Virus record (IMG/VR): IMGVR_UViG_3300030330_003269
Coordinates: 32,766-96,765 of that record
Source of the DNA: a virus
Taxonomy: Duplodnaviria > Caudoviricetes
Reading direction: 5' to 3' (one strand)
DNA length: 64,000 nt
Shown: positions 35,853 through 46,006 of the stretch, in pieces
How the letters are laid out: each line of letters starts with the position of its first letter
Numbering within the stretch: the first letter of the stretch is position 1
The notes under the pieces: generated by a model
Database searches by the model: none
The model's input: the letters and a program-made list of their open reading frames with translations, nothing else
What the model was told of the DNA's origin: nothing
Translations under genes and position numbers: made by a program

Positions 35853-36297
35853 TCTGTATCATTTACTGGGTGAACGCCATACCCTATAATGGTGGCGGTT
35901 TCACCTTTGAACATTTAAAATTAATGCTTTAGGGCTGCATAATTAAAGCCTTTTTATTCAAAATAGGTGCTTTGAACGATAATTCTTTAAAGCGAGAGAA
36001 AATAAAAAATTTGAAACAAAGCCATATGGTTGTATGTTCTTGTTAAGCGCGAAAAGTTGTTAATAACTACCATTTCTTTTTATTCGTTTCGTTAGATTCA
36101 TGCTAACGCTTTTCTATAGAACGCATTACGCAACTGTTTAAACATTATTTACAGCCATCTATGATGAATAACTACACCAGTTATACAAACCAATATAGTA
36201 GTTATTAACAACTTTACAACCATATGGTAGTGCTTTGTCAATAATCCCCAAGATTCCCCCCAAAAAGCCATGCGAAAGCGGGTTCCCCCCGCACAGG

Positions 36298-36339
36298 TCA
36301 TGTTCCCTTCTTTTTGCTCTTGCTTCCGCCTTTGCACAT
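36298..36339 (-). CDS. possible leaderless micropeptide MCKGGSKSKKKGT
   Basis: ATG about 20-25 nt after the TATA of unit 3, followed by a GC hairpin. Confidence 0.35.
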   Translation of the reverse strand: MCKGGSKSKKKGT

Positions 36340-36458
36340 GATATAGCGCAAATCCTCTAATATATGGTAATATCTCACAAAGTTTTATATTACCATATGG
36401 TTTGGCTTTGCCAGTTCACGGAAACCCCCCAAAGGGGGCAACGGGGAGTTAATCCGCA

Positions 36459-36965
36459 TCATTCCTCTTCTTGACCTCCTTCGGCGGATTTAACCGCTGG
36501 TGGGGTCATGTTGGGCATATCGCCATCAAGCGAGCCATCCCAACGACCTTCTTTGTAGCCAGTCAAAAGAGCCTTATACGCCTTCTCAGCGTAGTTAGCG
36601 GCCAATGCGTCAATATCAGCAAAAGCACCGCCAGTCCGACCATGAGGGAGAATGACCTGCAAAATCAAGTCAGCACTACCAATGGTGGCAAAGGCATTTT
36701 GAACCGCATTCTTCACAGAAAGCGCATTTTGCTCCACATCGTCGGGAAGTGAAGACTCCCGACCACGGCGAGCGACTGGGAAATCGTCATAAACGCTCCC
36801 AATACTTCGGATAGCCGTCCAGTAAGTAGAACGCATATCGTCGTTCTCTGCACCATTTCCAAGCATAATGCTCAATTCAATGGCCTTACCGTTATCACCT
36901 CGTTCTTCACGCTCAAGCCACGCAAGAACGGCATTCGTGTTTTTCGTCCAATTTTTCGTATTCAT
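36459..36965 (-). CDS. early protein, paralog family A
   Basis: GGAGG RBS; RSTYWTAIRSIGS, ARRGRES and PHGRTGG shared with 37625..38164. Confidence 0.85.
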   Translation of the reverse strand: MNTKNWTKNTNAVLAWLEREERGDNGKAIELSIMLGNGAENDDMRSTYWTAIRSIGSVYDDFPVARRGRESSLPDDVEQNALSVKNAVQNAFATIGSADLILQVILPHGRTGGAFADIDALAANYAEKAYKALLTGYKEGRWDGSLDGDMPNMTPPAVKSAEGGQEEE

Positions 36966-37260
36966 ATCAATTCCTCCAAGTGGGTTTGATGCTTCATAAC
37001 TCCCCGAAGCAACCAAGACCCCACTATTCAGTATAAGGTTGTAATTAAAGTGCAGGCAAAGCCATTACAACCATATGGTAATATGCTTTGTCAATTAAGT
37101 GAAACGACCCCAATTGCCACCTACGGAGAATTGAGCCCTTTTCTCCGTAGGTGGTCTTAATTCCCTGCCTTCCCTGTTTCTTTCCAGTCGGGTCGGGCGA
37201 ATTGGCCGAGGGCCGCCAATTATCGGGCTGTTTTGCCTCATGCATGAGGAATATGGTCGT

Positions 37261-37485
37261 TCACGCCCAAAGGCGTGAAGAAGCCTCAGTTCCGACTTCA
37301 AAGGGATATTCAAAGCCATGTGAATCAAGGTATTCCGTTTGAAAATATTCAACGAATCGCCAAGCATCAAAGCGTGGGTTATCGCATTTGAACGACCAAA
37401 TGATGATTTCAATGGTTCGGGGGTGAACCTCGGCGTTATCTGCAAGGTTTTCGGCTATTCGTCGGTAGTGCTGGCGGCTGAACAT
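37261..37485 (-). CDS. small leaderless early protein (DNPRFD motif)
   Basis: MFSRQHYRRIAE...DNPRFDAWRF; ATG about 20 nt after TATA. Confidence 0.75.
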   Translation of the reverse strand: MFSRQHYRRIAENLADNAEVHPRTIEIIIWSFKCDNPRFDAWRFVEYFQTEYLDSHGFEYPFEVGTEASSRLWA

Positions 37486-37624
37486 GATAAAGCACAAATG
37501 GTTCAATATAGGGTGCGTAGCCACAAAGTTCCTCTTACCATATGGTTTGAGACTTTGTTAATGTAATGGCGAACCCCAATAGCCCGAAGGCTAAAGGGGG
37601 CAACAAGGGGCTAACCTGTTGCAA

Positions 37625-38164
37625 TCACTCTTCTTCCGAACCTCCGTTGGATTCAGCCTTAACAGGCTTGGTTCGGGGCATGATTTGCAGAAGGTCGCCC
37701 TTCATGTCAAATTCGCCGTCTTTGGTCATAGCCACACGACCATCCTTCATTGATTGAATGATGTAGTTATGCGCCTGTTTCTTGAAAGAAGCGCACAATT
37801 CGTCAAAGGAGCCATAAACGCCACCAGTTCGCCCGTGTGGAACAATCACCGTAAGGAGTAGTTCGTGGAATTCAGTAGGGATTTGAGCAAAGGCATAAGC
37901 CACGCTTTCCTCCACAGTCGCCAAAACAAGTTCCTGCGTTTCCGAAAGATTGCTTTCCCGACCACGACGGGCCTGTGGAAAACCATCCATAGTAGAACCA
38001 ATTGAACGAATTGCAGTCCAATAGGTTGAACGAAGGTCGTCATTGGCCGCATTGTCTCCCAATTGCAGGGAAAGCATAACAGCACTCAAGTTATCGCTTG
38101 GGTCTTGATTTTCAGCCCATGCTCGCACTTTGTTTGCATTACTAATCCAGTTATTCTTCTTCAT
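37625..38164 (-). CDS. early protein, paralog family A
   Basis: GAGGTGA RBS; paralogous to 36459..36965. Confidence 0.85.
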   Translation of the reverse strand: MKKNNWISNANKVRAWAENQDPSDNLSAVMLSLQLGDNAANDDLRSTYWTAIRSIGSTMDGFPQARRGRESNLSETQELVLATVEESVAYAFAQIPTEFHELLLTVIVPHGRTGGVYGSFDELCASFKKQAHNYIIQSMKDGRVAMTKDGEFDMKGDLLQIMPRTKPVKAESNGGSEEE

Positions 38165-38294
38165 GTTTTTCACCTCTTCGGTTGGTGTTGCTCAAGTTAG
38201 CCCCTTGAAGCAACAATACATTTCCTTTTGAGTATATAGGGTTGTAATACAAAGTATACAACCATATGGTTTAATGCTTTGCAAATGTAATGTT

Positions 38295-38886
38295 TAACCC
38301 CAATATATTTTGGGGGCAACAAACAGGGCAGGGAAAAGTCTCCATTGTTATTGATATTCGCACTAATATGCCCGTTTGTGCCTTTGCTCGCCGTTATGCC
38401 GCTTCCTACATCAGTTGCTCTCAAGCGGGGGCTGTGAATGTAAAACGCCGCCTACTCCATTCAAATGAGACTCACACCACTACTTTGTTTCTTCATCAAG
38501 AATTGGCGCGCCAATAAATGACTACTCGTTGCTTTCGCGCTTTACTGCTCTGTGTTTCGGCTTTGTTTCCGATTGGTGTTTATGGCCAATCAACCAAGGG
38601 AATATGAAAAGGATGGGATGAAGAATTGGGTATCTCCAAGCATGAAGCGATTGGGTCGCTCTCACTTTTTGGTGCTCTATTGTTCTATAGAGCCATGCTG
38701 CTGATTTTACGAAGTAGATTAGTAGTCTACCGCCTTTTGAGCCTTAGTCGCTTTCACAGGGAACAATTAATCTATACCGCTTGGCCGTCATAACTGCTTT
38801 GTGTCCCACTACAGGAAAAATCACACCTTACCCCCACCAACAAGGGTATTCGGTCAATCCCCTTCGGGGGAGCGACCCCCGAAGCA
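38295..38886 (-). ncRNA. candidate large structured ncRNA (about 590 nt)
   Basis: Own palindrome-plus-TATA promoter, no credible ORF, many hairpins, terminal hairpin. Confidence 0.6.
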
Positions 38887-39112
38887 ATAGGGGCTTGCTT
38901 ATACAGTATAAGGTTTTAATCGCAAAGCAATACAACCATATGGTCTTACTTTGTTTTAATGGCCCGAAGGCTCAGTAAGGCCTTGCAGAATTGCATTCCC
39001 TACATTCAAGTTGGGAACCCCAAAAGGGCGGAATCCGCAGATAAACACGAATCCAATGCGCCCCTTGAGAGGGTTTGTATTGTTCACAAGATTGACACCA
39101 CATTTCACTCAT

Positions 39113-39397
39113 TCAAGCCCACTCCTTTTGAAAATCGGTAGATTCACCCAACATCTCAACCACGCCCGACATATCGCCCAACATAACTGAAATCATCATG
39201 TCGGTGATTTCATCCATCAAAACCGCATCAACGGTGTTTTTGAGGGCTTCAGCGTGAACCTCGTAAGCAACGAGAAAAGGAACATGAGGGTCAAGAGCCG
39301 CCAAATCTTTGTGCATGGACTCAACGAACCGTTCTTTGAGGTGGGCTTTCATCATTGGGCTAATGGTGGTCAAGGCTTCTACACACTTTTGGCACAT
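39113..39397 (-). CDS. leaderless early hypothetical protein
   Basis: 94 aa; ATG about 20 nt after the TATA of unit 8. Confidence 0.75.
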   Translation of the reverse strand: MCQKCVEALTTISPMMKAHLKERFVESMHKDLAALDPHVPFLVAYEVHAEALKNTVDAVLMDEITDMMISVMLGDMSGVVEMLGESTDFQKEWA

Positions 39398-39499
39398 GAT
39401 TAAGCCTCCATTGGTGAATATAGGGTTTTATTCTACAAAGTGTCTAAAACCATATGGTTTGAATATATCGTTGAAAGCGACATTGTGTTGTTTTACATA

Positions 39500-40130
39500 A
39501 CCTTCAACTGCATTAGTTTGTATAATTTATTACACCTCAACCGACTATCGGACTAACTGGGTATTATCCAATTGGGCTTATATTAATTCGTATAAGAATA
39601 CGAATATGAATATGAATATTAATATGAAGTATTGGCTCTTTCGCATGGGGTTCGCATGGGATGAGAAACACTATCCCCTCAAAAATGAGAGGGTTGTGTA
39701 GCAGAAGATATATGTTTTACATATATTATCATATTCTCATTATTATCATACTGTGTCTGAAATCTACCCCTCTAAAACTAAGGGGTTATGTGTCCTTGCA
39801 TAAGTGGCCTATTATGAGGGAGAGAATACCATGACCCCCCATGCGAAAATGAGAAATGCGAAAAAGGTGGGGCAAAATGCTGTTTTCGTTTAGTTTTGAA
39901 AGGGTTGTGTTGCATAACCCCCGATTCTCATGTATGCGAAACACATGAGAAAGGTTCTCATGGTGTGGTAGCGTTAATGTCTTTCAATCGCTATTCATTT
40001 TGAACAATTAATTACATTAGGGCAAAGTAAGGATAAAAGAAATCATTTCATTCATTTTAAACACGATTGAAAGACGGTGCAATCGGAGTTCAAATCTGCC
40101 CTCGGCGCATTCAAATCTGCCTTCGTCGGT
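39500..40130. other. putative replication origin / control region at the strand switch
   Basis: Non-coding; about 11 ATG[AC]GAA heptamers in both orientations; AT-rich tracts. Confidence 0.5.
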
Positions 40131-40155
40131 GTGAAAATAACACCCCATCCTTGAA

Positions 40156-40180
40156 AATGAAGCCCCTTATATACCATTGA
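40156..40180 (+). promoter_or_regulatory. archaeal BRE/TATA promoter
   Basis: AATGAAGCCCCTTATATACCATTGA, nearly repeated at 48164. Confidence 0.75.
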
Positions 40181-40229
40181 CAAGAGGAAAGGATAGAGCC
40201 AACAAGAACTGGCTCGGAGTTGAAAAAAA

Positions 40230-40697
40230 ATGGACAACACACAATGGGAAAGCCTCGTTATTGAGGTCAATGAATACCTTGAAGCCGACACCTCGCTTGA
40301 CGCTGGATTGCGCCAAGTCGTTGAATTGAACCTGCAAATTGGGTCTAACAACCCTGATGAGCGAACCGCCGCTGAAGGTGCTTTGAAAGCACTTTTGAAG
40401 GGCAGAGATGGAACCCCTTTCCGAAGAGGTCAGAAATCTGCTGTTCCAGCCGCAGTTCGTGTGTCAATTGACCGAATTTGCGGAGTTGTTGAAGAAGCCG
40501 CTATTGGCTACTTTAACCACGATGAAATCATCGGTGCAATCACCATGAAGCACATTAAGTCTGGTGGCGGTGCTTTTGAGGATGCAAATGAATACGCTTC
40601 CGCAGTTGTTAAGCGAACCCGCAACAACCTCGGAAAGATGTATAAGGACGGAAACTGGGATGGAAGCGTTGATTCCCTCCTTTCCTCCGAAGAGTGA
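40230..40697 (+). CDS. early protein, divergent member of paralog family A
   Basis: LNLQIG, PFRRGQKS and YKDGNWDGSVD match LSIMLG, PVARRGRES and YKEGRWDGSLD. Confidence 0.8.
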   Translation: MDNTQWESLVIEVNEYLEADTSLDAGLRQVVELNLQIGSNNPDERTAAEGALKALLKGRDGTPFRRGQKSAVPAAVRVSIDRICGVVEEAAIGYFNHDEIIGAITMKHIKSGGGAFEDANEYASAVVKRTRNNLGKMYKDGNWDGSVDSLLSSEE

Positions 40698-40850
40698 AGT
40701 TAATTCTTCATCCTTTGCATTTCCAGTTCTCTGAACTGAACAACGGAGAATAGGAGGCTACGGCCTTCTATTCTTCCCTTTCTCCACAAATGGGGGAAGA
40801 GAGGCGCATGAACTTGGGGGCTTTCGGGCTTTTCCTCTCTTCTCCCTCCT

Positions 40851-41111
40851 TTGGGTGATTTGATGCGTTTAGTAGAAGAAGTCTATGTTAAAGCAAAAAA
40901 GGATTACATCTGTCAATCCTGCGGCGTTGATATTCCCGAAGGTTCTAATCATCTTCTTGAATCCTATGTTCATCATGGGGTTATTTCAACCAGTCATTAC
41001 TGTTTGAAGAAAAAGTGCAATCCTCCAAACAATGTCCGATTAAGGTTGTTTTGGGGGTCAATTGTCGTAGGCTTTTGTTTATGGCTCATTTACCTCATCA
41101 GGTTTAATTGA
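40851..41111 (+). CDS. Zn-finger protein with C-terminal TM helix
   Basis: KAKKDYICQSC...HYC..KC; hydrophobic tail. Confidence 0.7.
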   Translation: MGDLMRLVEEVYVKAKKDYICQSCGVDIPEGSNHLLESYVHHGVISTSHYCLKKKCNPPNNVRLRLFWGSIVVGFCLWLIYLIRFN

Positions 41112-41260: not shown

Positions 41261-41344
41261 GCTGAGATGGTGGAGCATGGTTAAACACGCAGGGCTTAAA
41301 CTCCTGTCCTTAACGGTTCGCAGGTTCAAATCCTGCTCTCAGCA
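41261..41344 (+). tRNA. tRNA-Leu(UAA)
   Basis: GCTGAGA/TCTCAGC acceptor stem, CAGGG-CTTAAAC-TCCTG anticodon arm, long variable arm, GGTTCAAATCC T-arm. Confidence 0.9.
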
Positions 41345-41451
41345 CTATTTTCACGGAGAAGTTGAGGCAGGGGCAACAAACGAAGTATGACCGATTAAGT
41401 TCGGTTTTGCCTCCTTCTCCTCCTATTCCCTAATTTACAGGAGAAAGAAAC

Positions 41452-45930: not shown

Positions 45931-46006
45931 GGGCGTATGGTGTAATAGGATAGCATTTTGGCCTTCTAAGCCGAAGATTCGGGTTCAAATCCTGATACGC
46001 CCGCCA
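45931..46006 (+). tRNA. tRNA-Arg(UCU) with encoded CCA
   Basis: GGGCGTA/TACGCCC acceptor stem, TTGGC-CTTCTAA-GCCGA anticodon arm, GGTTCAAATCC. Confidence 0.92.

Follow-up and report, generated by a model that had tools for sequence, protein, structure and literature searches.

A manA-related structured RNA in a promoter-bounded unit of a putative group-B-like magrovirus

Results

A structured RNA conserved across marine viral contigs

The DNA analysed here (the window) is a stretch of 64,000 nucleotides that covers bases 32766-96765 of a 96.8 kb virus record in IMG/VR (IMGVR_UViG_3300030330_003269). On its minus strand, from 38885 to ~38296, lies a structured non-coding RNA composed of a 5' domain (D1) homologous to the manA motif (Rfam RF01745), a second domain with a palindromic apex (D2) and a third (D3) followed by a 3' hairpin. 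The unit opens at a promoter module and is followed by that of a gene for a 182-amino-acid (aa) protein (Table 1). An earlier note, drawn from the bare sequence, had placed here a large, ornate, independently promoted viral RNA of unrecognised class; the description stands, whereas the class assignment does not, the 5' ~270 nt being a divergent and expanded relative of manA. All of the sequence strings named in the note are present where it placed them.

Folding of the single sequence was uninformative, its minimum free energy being no different from that of shuffled controls (z = -0.31 and -0.74 on the two strands), and the case therefore rests on comparison with relatives. The first relative, contig L002, was reached through the neighbouring 182-aa protein, of which it encodes a copy at 97% identity; its RNA region is only 86% identical to that of the window, and the differences are paired, compensating changes within hairpins. 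A first DNA pattern, GGATTGACCGAATACCC, was abandoned, having returned two relatives alongside two chance matches (L005 and L006). A profile of three paralogous proteins encoded nearby identified 16 viral loci in IMG/VR, 13 of which carry the RNA element, and a conserved 26-nt pattern identified 79 marine metagenome contigs (TARA, GOS and JGI), nearly all of them confirmed by nhmmer. More than 60 distinct contigs from marine viruses and metagenomes carry the unit, which always lies between ACCATATGGT promoter palindromes, at spacings that hold in essentially every case (Table 1). A blastn search with the RNA of a phage GenBank collection that holds no magroviruses found nothing. Scanning GTDB genomes with the pattern gave one real match, L120, and two chance matches that fell within coding sequence of gut Clostridia; the scan, which divergent copies would escape, showed no copy encoded by a host. 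L120 itself (NZ_NZTP01000027.1, labelled as an Altibacter sp. metagenome-assembled genome, MAG) is 14.8 kb long and carries the RNA (nhmmer, 260 bits) along with genes for p182, p168 and p155; it comes from a magrovirus and ended up in a Flavobacteria MAG during binning.

For D1, 51 sequences less than 97% identical to one another were collected and aligned with nhmmer and MAFFT (mean pairwise identity 65%, minimum 45%). RNAalifold folds them into 69 pairs in 14 helices, with compensatory changes in 49 of the 69. Pairing is retained in 98.3% of 3516 alignment cells, compared with 37-45% when the partners are slid; cells in which both partners have changed number 751 against 50-122, and none of 500 shuffles reached the observed values. 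The earlier note had looked to covariation among homologues to decide the matter, and support of this kind is overwhelming. The folded strand is the minus strand of the window, since G.U cells outnumber A.C cells by 413 to 18 at paired positions.

There is a negligible chance that these patterns stem from a protein-coding gene obscured by a frameshift, by a different genetic code or by division into small open reading frames (ORFs). Several ORFs of 30-75 aa do exist on both strands (median 45 aa sense, 57 aa antisense), but their positions are not conserved. On the minus strand of the unit the longest reach 35-75 aa and none is conserved across relatives, which bears out the earlier statement that no credible minus-strand ORF is present. 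Alignment columns vary almost equally at the three codon positions (0.266, 0.264 and 0.271), and the conserved codon pattern that the note had offered as an objection to its own proposal is nowhere seen. Gap runs of length 1, 2 and 0 modulo 3 number 494, 142 and 49, such that 93% are not multiples of three, and the substitutions are compensatory pairs.

Architecture and tertiary contacts of D1

D1 forms a module of ~270 nt (~38884-38600), of which the 5' hairpin P0 and the P1-closed core take up 38884-38615. The core comprises P2, P2a, P3, P4, P5, P6, P6a, P6b, P7, P7a, P7b and P8. P0 is the perfect 9-bp hairpin already remarked upon in the single sequence (CTTCGGGGG/CCCCCGAAG, 38884-38876/38870-38862), and it covaries; so do two further stems recognised at that stage, GTAGA/TCTAC, which is P6b, and GCTCTAT/ATAGAGC, which is P7a. 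In relatives, the GGGAU/AUCCC of the closing helix P1 is replaced by GGCAU/AUGCC, GACAU/AUGUC or GAGAA/UUCUC. Many unpaired nucleotides of D1 are invariant, and a short U-run follows P1 in most copies.

A scan of all pairs of alignment columns revealed two tertiary contacts. PK1 pairs the P2a loop with the strand that separates P7a from P7b and occurs in at least eight complementary versions, including UUGGU/ACCAA, UGAAC/GUUCA, UAGAC/GUCUA, UGGUC/GACCA, UUGUU/AACAA and GGGUU/AACCC. PK2 is a kissing contact between the loops of P4 and P6b, found as UAGU/ACUA, UUGU/ACAA and UGGU/ACCA, and is paired in 95.5% of cases. Taken together, PK1 and PK2 are 85.9% paired, against 28-44% with slid partners. 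In one scaffold (TARA_R100000734, L041:866-1164) D1 looks recombinant, its 5' half resembling the window's clade and its 3' half another; the PK1 strands of this copy are mismatched (UUGGU against GUUCA) as a result.

These contacts revise other readings of the same letters. P6b was considered as an anticodon-like stem-loop and rejected, as its loop kisses that of P4. A long-range match proposed in the note as a possible pseudoknot, GACTACT/AGTAGTC, is complementary at 6-7 of seven positions within the window's clade but at only 0-5 elsewhere, and the loop concerned pairs with that of P4. The closing helix suggested for the whole RNA, GGGACACAAAGCAG/CTGTTTGTTGCCC, must be given up: each strand is engaged elsewhere, in helices that covary (P4/P5 and P12), and many homologues lack D3.

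D1 is a divergent relative of manA

At gathering threshold, an Rfam scan of the window returned only two tRNAs. The blank at the RNA unit follows from the manA cut-off of 55.2 bits, under which every scored copy falls; the window copy reaches 20.5 bits in a permissive scan, with an alignment of striking motif identity. Nine homologues align end to end with the model (positions 1-192), scoring 54.6, 52.4, 52.2, 51.3, 49.6, 49.3, 48.7, 39.4 and 36.9 bits with E-values from 2.2e-11 to 6.6e-6, and the window copy stands in the same alignment as the homologues L079, L041 and L048. The manA RNA of P-SSM2, used as a positive control, scored 181.6 bits. These end-to-end alignments overturned the idea of a brand-new RNA class. 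The Rfam search that the note had recommended was therefore empty at the gathering threshold and for D2 and D3, which have no match in a scan of 38150-39000 at E up to 10, and informative for D1.

The manA motif was described in 2010 (Weinberg et al., PMC2864571) as a riboswitch candidate in the 5' untranslated regions (UTRs) of sugar, nucleotide, chaperone and photosynthesis genes, and its role was still called unverified in a 2023 paper (PMC9964418). The helices of D1 correspond to those of manA one to one (P0, P1, P2 with P2a, P3, P4, P5, P6, P7 and P8), and both RNAs inhabit marine viruses. They share the 5' hairpin, the GGGAN...NUCCCACC closing helix, the P3 multi-stem junction and the UGACYGAAUA...GGGGUAAGGUG arm. 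Also in common are the P7 and P8 arms with their UA..CA..AAU loop, two loops of GUGGUG and ACCA type that face each other, and contact between the P2a loop and the interior of P7. Among conserved manA motifs, those looked for and found were the 5' hairpin, GGGAG/CUCCCACC, the UGACUGAAUA...UAAGGUG arm, the hairpin with the GUGGUG loop and the P8 loop UA..CA..AAU. The manA equivalent of P1 is the helix labelled 'pseudoknot?' in the original description (PMC2864571).

Canonical manA copies, in P-SSM2 and in IMG/VR cyanophage contigs (L128-L204; L125:1501-1698), also possess PK2, as an invariant GGUGGUG (P4 loop)/ACCA (P6 loop), and an equivalent of PK1, in which GGCAU/AUGCC or GGAAU/AUUCC joins the P2a loop to the strand after P7a. 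Complementarity at both positions indicates that the tertiary design is shared. Neither loop contact is marked as paired in the Rfam structure line printed by cmscan. D1 is thus, with high confidence, homologous to manA.

The two forms nevertheless differ in size and setting. The distance from P1 to P1 is 247 nt in the window and 167-179 nt in canonical manA, the magrovirus form having insertions of ~25-35 nt in each of P5, P6 and P7. Canonical manA is a single domain of ~190 nt, whereas D1 is followed by D2 and D3. In cyanophage contigs the next ORF begins a median of 24 nt after P1, and the P-SSM2 copy lies 15 nt upstream of a purL-like ORF behind a bacterial-type promoter; the magrovirus unit starts from an archaeal-type TATA promoter of its own and ends in a 3' hairpin, without a downstream ORF, and it is found in a virus assigned to archaea instead of a cyanophage or bacterium. 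A 5'-UTR position is not seen in the window and occurs only in clade L021-L023. In a few canonical copies what comes next is not an ORF but a tRNA gene (L159) or a terminator hairpin (L154). What is new here is the host domain, the stand-alone unit, the enlarged core, the two added domains, the two pseudoknots and the palindromic-loop signature.

D2, D3 and a palindromic apex

Downstream of D1 follow D2 (~170 nt) and D3 with the 3' hairpin (38440-38296, ~145 nt), whose helices P9, P10 and P12 are 95.8% paired against 33-58% with slid partners. A stem read earlier as GATTGG/CCAATC is present, although covariation extends only to its conserved core UUGG/CCAA, which forms P9; the P9 loop holds an invariant palindrome, UGGCCA, at 38588-38583. 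GCGUUUU was considered as a terminator and dismissed, being the 3' strand of P10. In D3, P12 changes from ACGGACA/UGUCCGU to ACACACA/UGUGUGU, ACGAGCA/UGCUCGU or CUUGGUA/UGCCAAG. The terminal CCCCAA/TTGGGG hairpin (38315-38298) reported in the note holds up in the comparative analysis. The modules are distributed unevenly across clades: D1 is universal, D2 is missing in one clade (absent from L017, L018 and L020), and D3 with the 3' hairpin is absent or different in others (D3 is absent from L009).

D2 also holds P11, the palindromic hairpin, which the note had listed among its stems as ATTGGCGCGCCAAT and which is now seen to covary. Its apex is a perfect palindrome of 6-20 nt in all 33 aligned D2 sequences, centred on CAUG, UAUA, CUAG or CGCG; in two rows the palindrome scored is a neighbouring GAATTC (centre AAUU) beside a CCAUGG apex. 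Self-complementarity is not required of a hairpin loop. Kretsch et al. (PMC12286853) took the switching of a loop tetranucleotide between palindromes as covariation support for kissing loops that join molecules symmetrically in the RNAs OLE and GOLLD, and the D2 apex resembles OLE L9.3 and GOLLD L21a in this respect. It differs in that the palindrome occupies the hairpin apex without flanking loop nucleotides, which would make an extended duplex likelier than a classic kissing loop. We take the D2 palindromes as a hint of RNA self-association that falls short of a demonstration, about as open to doubt as to belief.

Palindromes also invite an explanation at the level of DNA, in which the locus would consist of origin-associated inverted repeats, cruciforms or protein-binding palindromes near the point of gene divergence and not of RNA. 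The unit does lie ~0.6 kb from a strand-switch and GC-skew turning region at ~39.5-40.1 kb, and its perfect palindromes are many. A shared DNA-binding protein is argued against, however, because the D2 palindromes vary between viruses while the promoter palindrome is invariant. The strand-specific excess of G.U over A.C is meaningless in duplex DNA, the long-range helices and pseudoknots covary, RNA contigs match the 5' boundary of the unit, and the core has homologues in an established RNA family. For D1 the explanation is refuted, and for the unit we find it scarcely credible.

Promoter and transcripts

The unit has the promoter layout that the note had described, with TTATAC (38911-38906) downstream of ACCATATGGT (38944-38935), and the arrangement AACC[TCA]TATA is common to all 15 units of alignment A4. 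Words of the RNA stretch are present in 21 RNA-library runs from 16 studies. Four metatranscriptome assemblies, two of them of runs from one study, were compared with 36000-41000, and their contigs cover 38559-38885 (no differences, depth 54), 38654-38885 and 38427-38586, besides variant strains of D1; the flanks of the unit are almost uncovered. Two contigs, X1 (334 nt, depth 54) and X3 (234 nt, depth 12.8), both end at 38885 without mismatches. Their runs belong to one study and the shared end is a hint only, consistent with an archaeal start site at ~24 nt past the TATA centre. One contig continues through the U-run after P1 into D2. The contigs of the four runs do not cover 38295-38427 or most flanking genes, which is not evidence of absence. 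Outside the unit, a 36-nt RNA contig maps to the repeat-rich, non-coding strand-switch region at 39596-39628 (depth 432 against 8.5 in two RNA libraries) and may be either a cross-match due to low complexity or a short RNA of very high abundance.

Table 1 Features of the RNA unit and nearby landmarks (window coordinates)
Feature	Position	Strand	Basis or remark
Upstream palindrome ACCATATGGT of the promoter module, operator-like	38935..38944	-	Motif count; CCATATGG 52-65 nt before D1 in nearly all homologous units
TATA-like box TTATAC, preceded by A-rich AAAACC (38912-38917)	38906..38911	-	Sequence
Probable transcription start (G)	38885	-	Two metatranscriptome contig ends; ~24 nt downstream of TATA centre
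P0, 5' hairpin CUUCGGGGG / CCCCCGAAG (manA model positions 1-21)	38862..38884	-	Covaries, e.g. CUCCAGUC/GACUGGAG, GUCGG/CCGAC
D1 core, closed by P1 (GGGAU 38861-38857 / AUCCC 38619-38615)	38615..38861	-	Covariation; alignment of homologues to RF01745
PK1 5' strand UUGGU, P2a loop	38836..38840	-	Pairs with ACCAA 38669-38673
PK1 3' strand ACCAA, between P7a and P7b	38669..38673	-	Covariation with P2a loop
PK2 5' strand UAGU, P4 loop	38808..38811	-	Kisses ACUA 38720-38723
PK2 3' strand ACUA, P6b loop CUACUAA	38720..38723	-	Covariation with P4 loop
D2	38440..38613	-	P9 and P10; 98-100% paired with compensatory changes
P9 hairpin UUGG / CCAA, within D2	38597-38594 / 38576-38573	-	Covariation
P10, D2 closing helix, GGAAAC / GUUUUA plus GCC / GGC	38570-38565 / 38446-38441; 38561-38559 / 38452-38450	-	Covariation
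P11, hairpin with loop-less palindromic apex AUUGGCGCGCCAAU	38502..38515	-	33/33 aligned D2 sequences palindromic; flanking stems covary
Clade-specific extra hairpin CCGCUU 38428-38423 / AAGCGG 38404-38399	38399..38428	-	Compensatory C-G to U-A relative to L002; window's clade only
D3, P12 (AAACGGGCA 38377-38369 / UGCCCUGUUU 38330-38321) around conserved AUUAG...CUUUUCCCUG	38321..38377	-	Covariation
3' terminal hairpin CCCCAA / UUGGGG, then UUAAAC; probable (unmapped) 3' end	38298..38315	-	Other clades: different, self-complementary hairpins at the homologous position
ACCATATGGT palindrome of the next unit, promoter of the 182-aa gene; end marker of the RNA unit	38261..38270	-	Downstream palindrome 123-333 nt after D1 in 59 units
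tRNA genes, Leu(TAA) and Arg(TCT)	41261-41345 and 45931-46006	opposite to RNA	2.4 kb and 7 kb from the RNA

An independent cassette or a leader

The palindrome ACCATATGGT is over-represented in the window: its extended motif matches 16 times where 1.6 matches are expected, in a cluster at 36016-39463, and each copy at ~36.0-39.5 kb precedes a TATA-like box and a short minus-strand unit. Window positions 36016-39463 hold ~8 such autonomous cassettes, each opening with the invariant palindrome and TATA-like box. In related genomes the same cassettes (p182, p168, p155, p94, p46, p87 and the RNA) recur in permuted order, which suggests shuffling under one shared regulator; because the order is permuted, the RNA unit behaves as an independent cassette. 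Its downstream neighbour may be p182, p168, p87 or p94, and the downstream gene in the window, that of the 182-aa protein, has its own palindrome and TATA promoter. The unit is probably a stand-alone transcript, as the RNA contigs and promoter modules in part show.

The strongest competing explanation is a cis-regulatory leader or riboswitch, whose fold would set termination at the 3' end or at the U-run after P1 and hence how far transcription reads into the next cassette or interferes with it. In Rfam, manA is classed as cis-regulatory, and the spacing of cyanophage copies before the next ORF, that of P-SSM2 before its purL-like ORF included, is that of a leader. Clade L021-L023 (L022:8922-9188 and equivalents) keeps an ORF behind D1 and D2: in the place of D3 there stands a GGUGA site with an ORF of 85-88 aa encoding a basic protein rich in Lys and Arg, an arrangement that may be the ancestral leader layout. 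In addition, the cassettes downstream of the RNA are almost always on the same strand, and most copies retain the U-run. On the other hand, neither the window nor most of the 59 complete units has a conserved ORF before the next promoter; the downstream gene possesses a full promoter module; the neighbour differs between genomes, so that no gene-specific logic is conserved; one RNA contig reads through the U-run into D2; and the 170-330 nt of covarying structure in D2 and D3 go far beyond what an expression platform needs. On balance we consider a cis-regulatory leader unlikely, while giving it real weight.

The same clade could be taken as a sign of decay, the unit being a former manA-type 5' leader that has lost its ORF and is now drifting, and the variable presence of D2 and D3 would fit such a history. 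Against this stand strong purifying selection on the structure at a mean identity of 65% (minimum 45%, so that the aligned copies are not very recent ones), a covarying helix of D3's own, an intact promoter in more than 60 contigs and the presence of the unit in RNA libraries. Covariation largely refutes the decay explanation, which we hold to be very improbable.

Comparison with other large RNAs

The earlier note had compared the unit with ROOL and GOLLD. GOLLD and ROOL are virus-borne RNAs, carried by prophages, and their genes are often found near tRNA genes. Models for ROOL, GOLLD, OLE, raiA and HEARO gave no match at gathering threshold, or at E up to 10 over 38150-39000, and no Rfam ribozyme model matched that region at E up to 10. 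RNase P, signal recognition particle (SRP) RNA, tmRNA and group I and II introns had no Rfam match, and the only tRNAs found by Rfam and ARAGORN are those at 41261-41345 and 45931-46006, in agreement with the earlier statement that the unit bears no RNase P, SRP or tRNA signature. Its likeness to ROOL, GOLLD and OLE lies in size (~600 nt), in being carried by a virus and in the many helices and pseudoknots; its architecture is a different one, and oligomerisation is here predicted from palindromes.

A further conceivable explanation is an RNA machine complete in itself. It could be a ribozyme, or else a cage or scaffold built of RNA alone in the manner of ROOL and GOLLD, and its manA-like core would be purely architectural and bind no ligand. 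The compact pseudoknotted fold with its many invariant unpaired nucleotides, the palindromic loops and the precedent of phage-borne ornate RNAs that form homo-oligomers (PMC12286853) all speak for such a machine, and the tRNA genes 2.4 kb and 7 kb away loosely recall the surroundings of GOLLD and ROOL. Yet the scan at E up to 10 matched no model of a ribozyme, group I/II intron, ROOL, GOLLD or OLE, the RNA contigs show neither a cleavage site nor a joint, and the palindrome-bearing D2 is missing from some clades that keep D1. We judge it improbable.

To our knowledge, this would be the first large, covariation-supported non-coding RNA of an archaeal virus, and seemingly an abundant transcript; literature searches for structured RNAs of magroviruses or archaeal viruses found none. 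Fremin et al. 2023 (PMC10690425) mined 8,495 'DNAVirus_X' motifs of 29-151 nt from IMG/VR viruses by covariation. Short pieces of the magrovirus RNA may be among these motifs, although the paper describes no multi-domain RNA of 400-600 nt and no magrovirus RNA.

The virus and its neighbouring genes

The window encodes tRNA-Leu(TAA), tRNA-Arg(TCT), a thermosome-type chaperonin, a portal protein, a terminase, an SU10-like capsid protein and two ATP-dependent DNA ligases, one of these within the structural module, in a virus of ~97 kb. Published group-B magroviruses have the same tRNA-Leu and tRNA-Arg pair, a thermosome and two ATP-dependent ligases (PMC5434244), and the gene content fits a group-B-like magrovirus. 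Because of this match, the host would be Marine Group II archaea. A ligase protein search of the phage GenBank collection, which is devoid of magroviruses, gave one weak match only, ANMV-1.

Three paralogous proteins of 155-182 aa are encoded around the unit, at 37625-38164(-), 36459-36965(-) and 40230-40697(+). They have in common the motifs RSTYWTAIRSIGS, RRGRES and PHGRTGG and acidic ...SEEE tails, and, wherever a contig has enough flanking sequence, they almost always accompany the RNA unit, owing to which they are possible partners of the RNA. Neither Pfam nor PHROG has a match for the 182-aa family, p94, p46 or p87, and the protein-atlas scores of these proteins (at most 0.82) are at noise level.

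Discussion

Taken together, our findings identify a covarying, multi-domain RNA, the core of which is a form of manA. We favour, with more confidence than doubt, the interpretation that window positions 38885 to ~38296 (-) encode a stand-alone, trans-acting, manA-type structured RNA of a group-B-like magrovirus. D1 would be its conserved recognition core, binding the same small molecule or universal component of the cell as cyanophage manA, with PK1 and PK2 locking its arms together and extra peripheral helices inserted at three sites. That D1 senses a ligand or partner is a tentative proposal, made by analogy with manA. Canonical manA would control the ORF ~24 nt downstream; in the magrovirus the output would be the RNA itself. 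The self-complementary loops of D2 (UGGCCA and the palindromic apex) may let two or more copies pair symmetrically, and D3 with the 3' hairpin may stabilise or end the transcript.

Several points weigh against this interpretation. The scores of all copies lie under the manA gathering cut-off, that of the window copy by a wide distance, and manA function is itself unproven, so that likeness to manA transfers little. D2 and D3 are dispensable in some clades, D3 is not seen in the RNA contigs of the four runs, and the palindromic apices could result from a constraint on the DNA. The expression evidence consists of assembled contigs from runs chosen for holding the stretch, which do not give strand, true ends or a fair level relative to neighbours. 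Finally, the Shine-Dalgarno-like GGUGA and ORF of L021-L023, together with the 5'-leader position of canonical manA, make a role in cis possible, be it ancestral or current.

It is tempting to speculate further that manA-type RNAs are virus RNAs common to cyanophages and archaeal magroviruses, acting on something universal, a metabolite or a core machine, and not gene-specific riboswitches; the magrovirus form would then be a free, abundant particle of ~600 nt, oligomerising into symmetric dimers or higher forms through its D2 palindromes. We regard this broader scheme as unlikely but worth stating. If true, no ornate multimeric RNA would have been known from an archaeal virus before this one. 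Self-association of RNA with RNA, on which the scheme depends, is what the always-palindromic D2 apex predicts.

For manA itself, the magrovirus alignment provides strong covariation for the closing helix that was marked as doubtful in the original description, and it reveals two pseudoknots that the Rfam structure line of cmscan does not mark. Since 2010 manA has remained an orphan riboswitch candidate, known almost only from marine metagenomes and cyanophages. A relative with no gene behind it, fused to two further domains and carried by presumed viruses of Marine Group II archaea, an abundant group of ocean viruses, constitutes a natural experiment on the role of the fold. The target of this fold has to be present either in bacterial as well as archaeal hosts or in the viruses, and the function of manA may need to be rethought.

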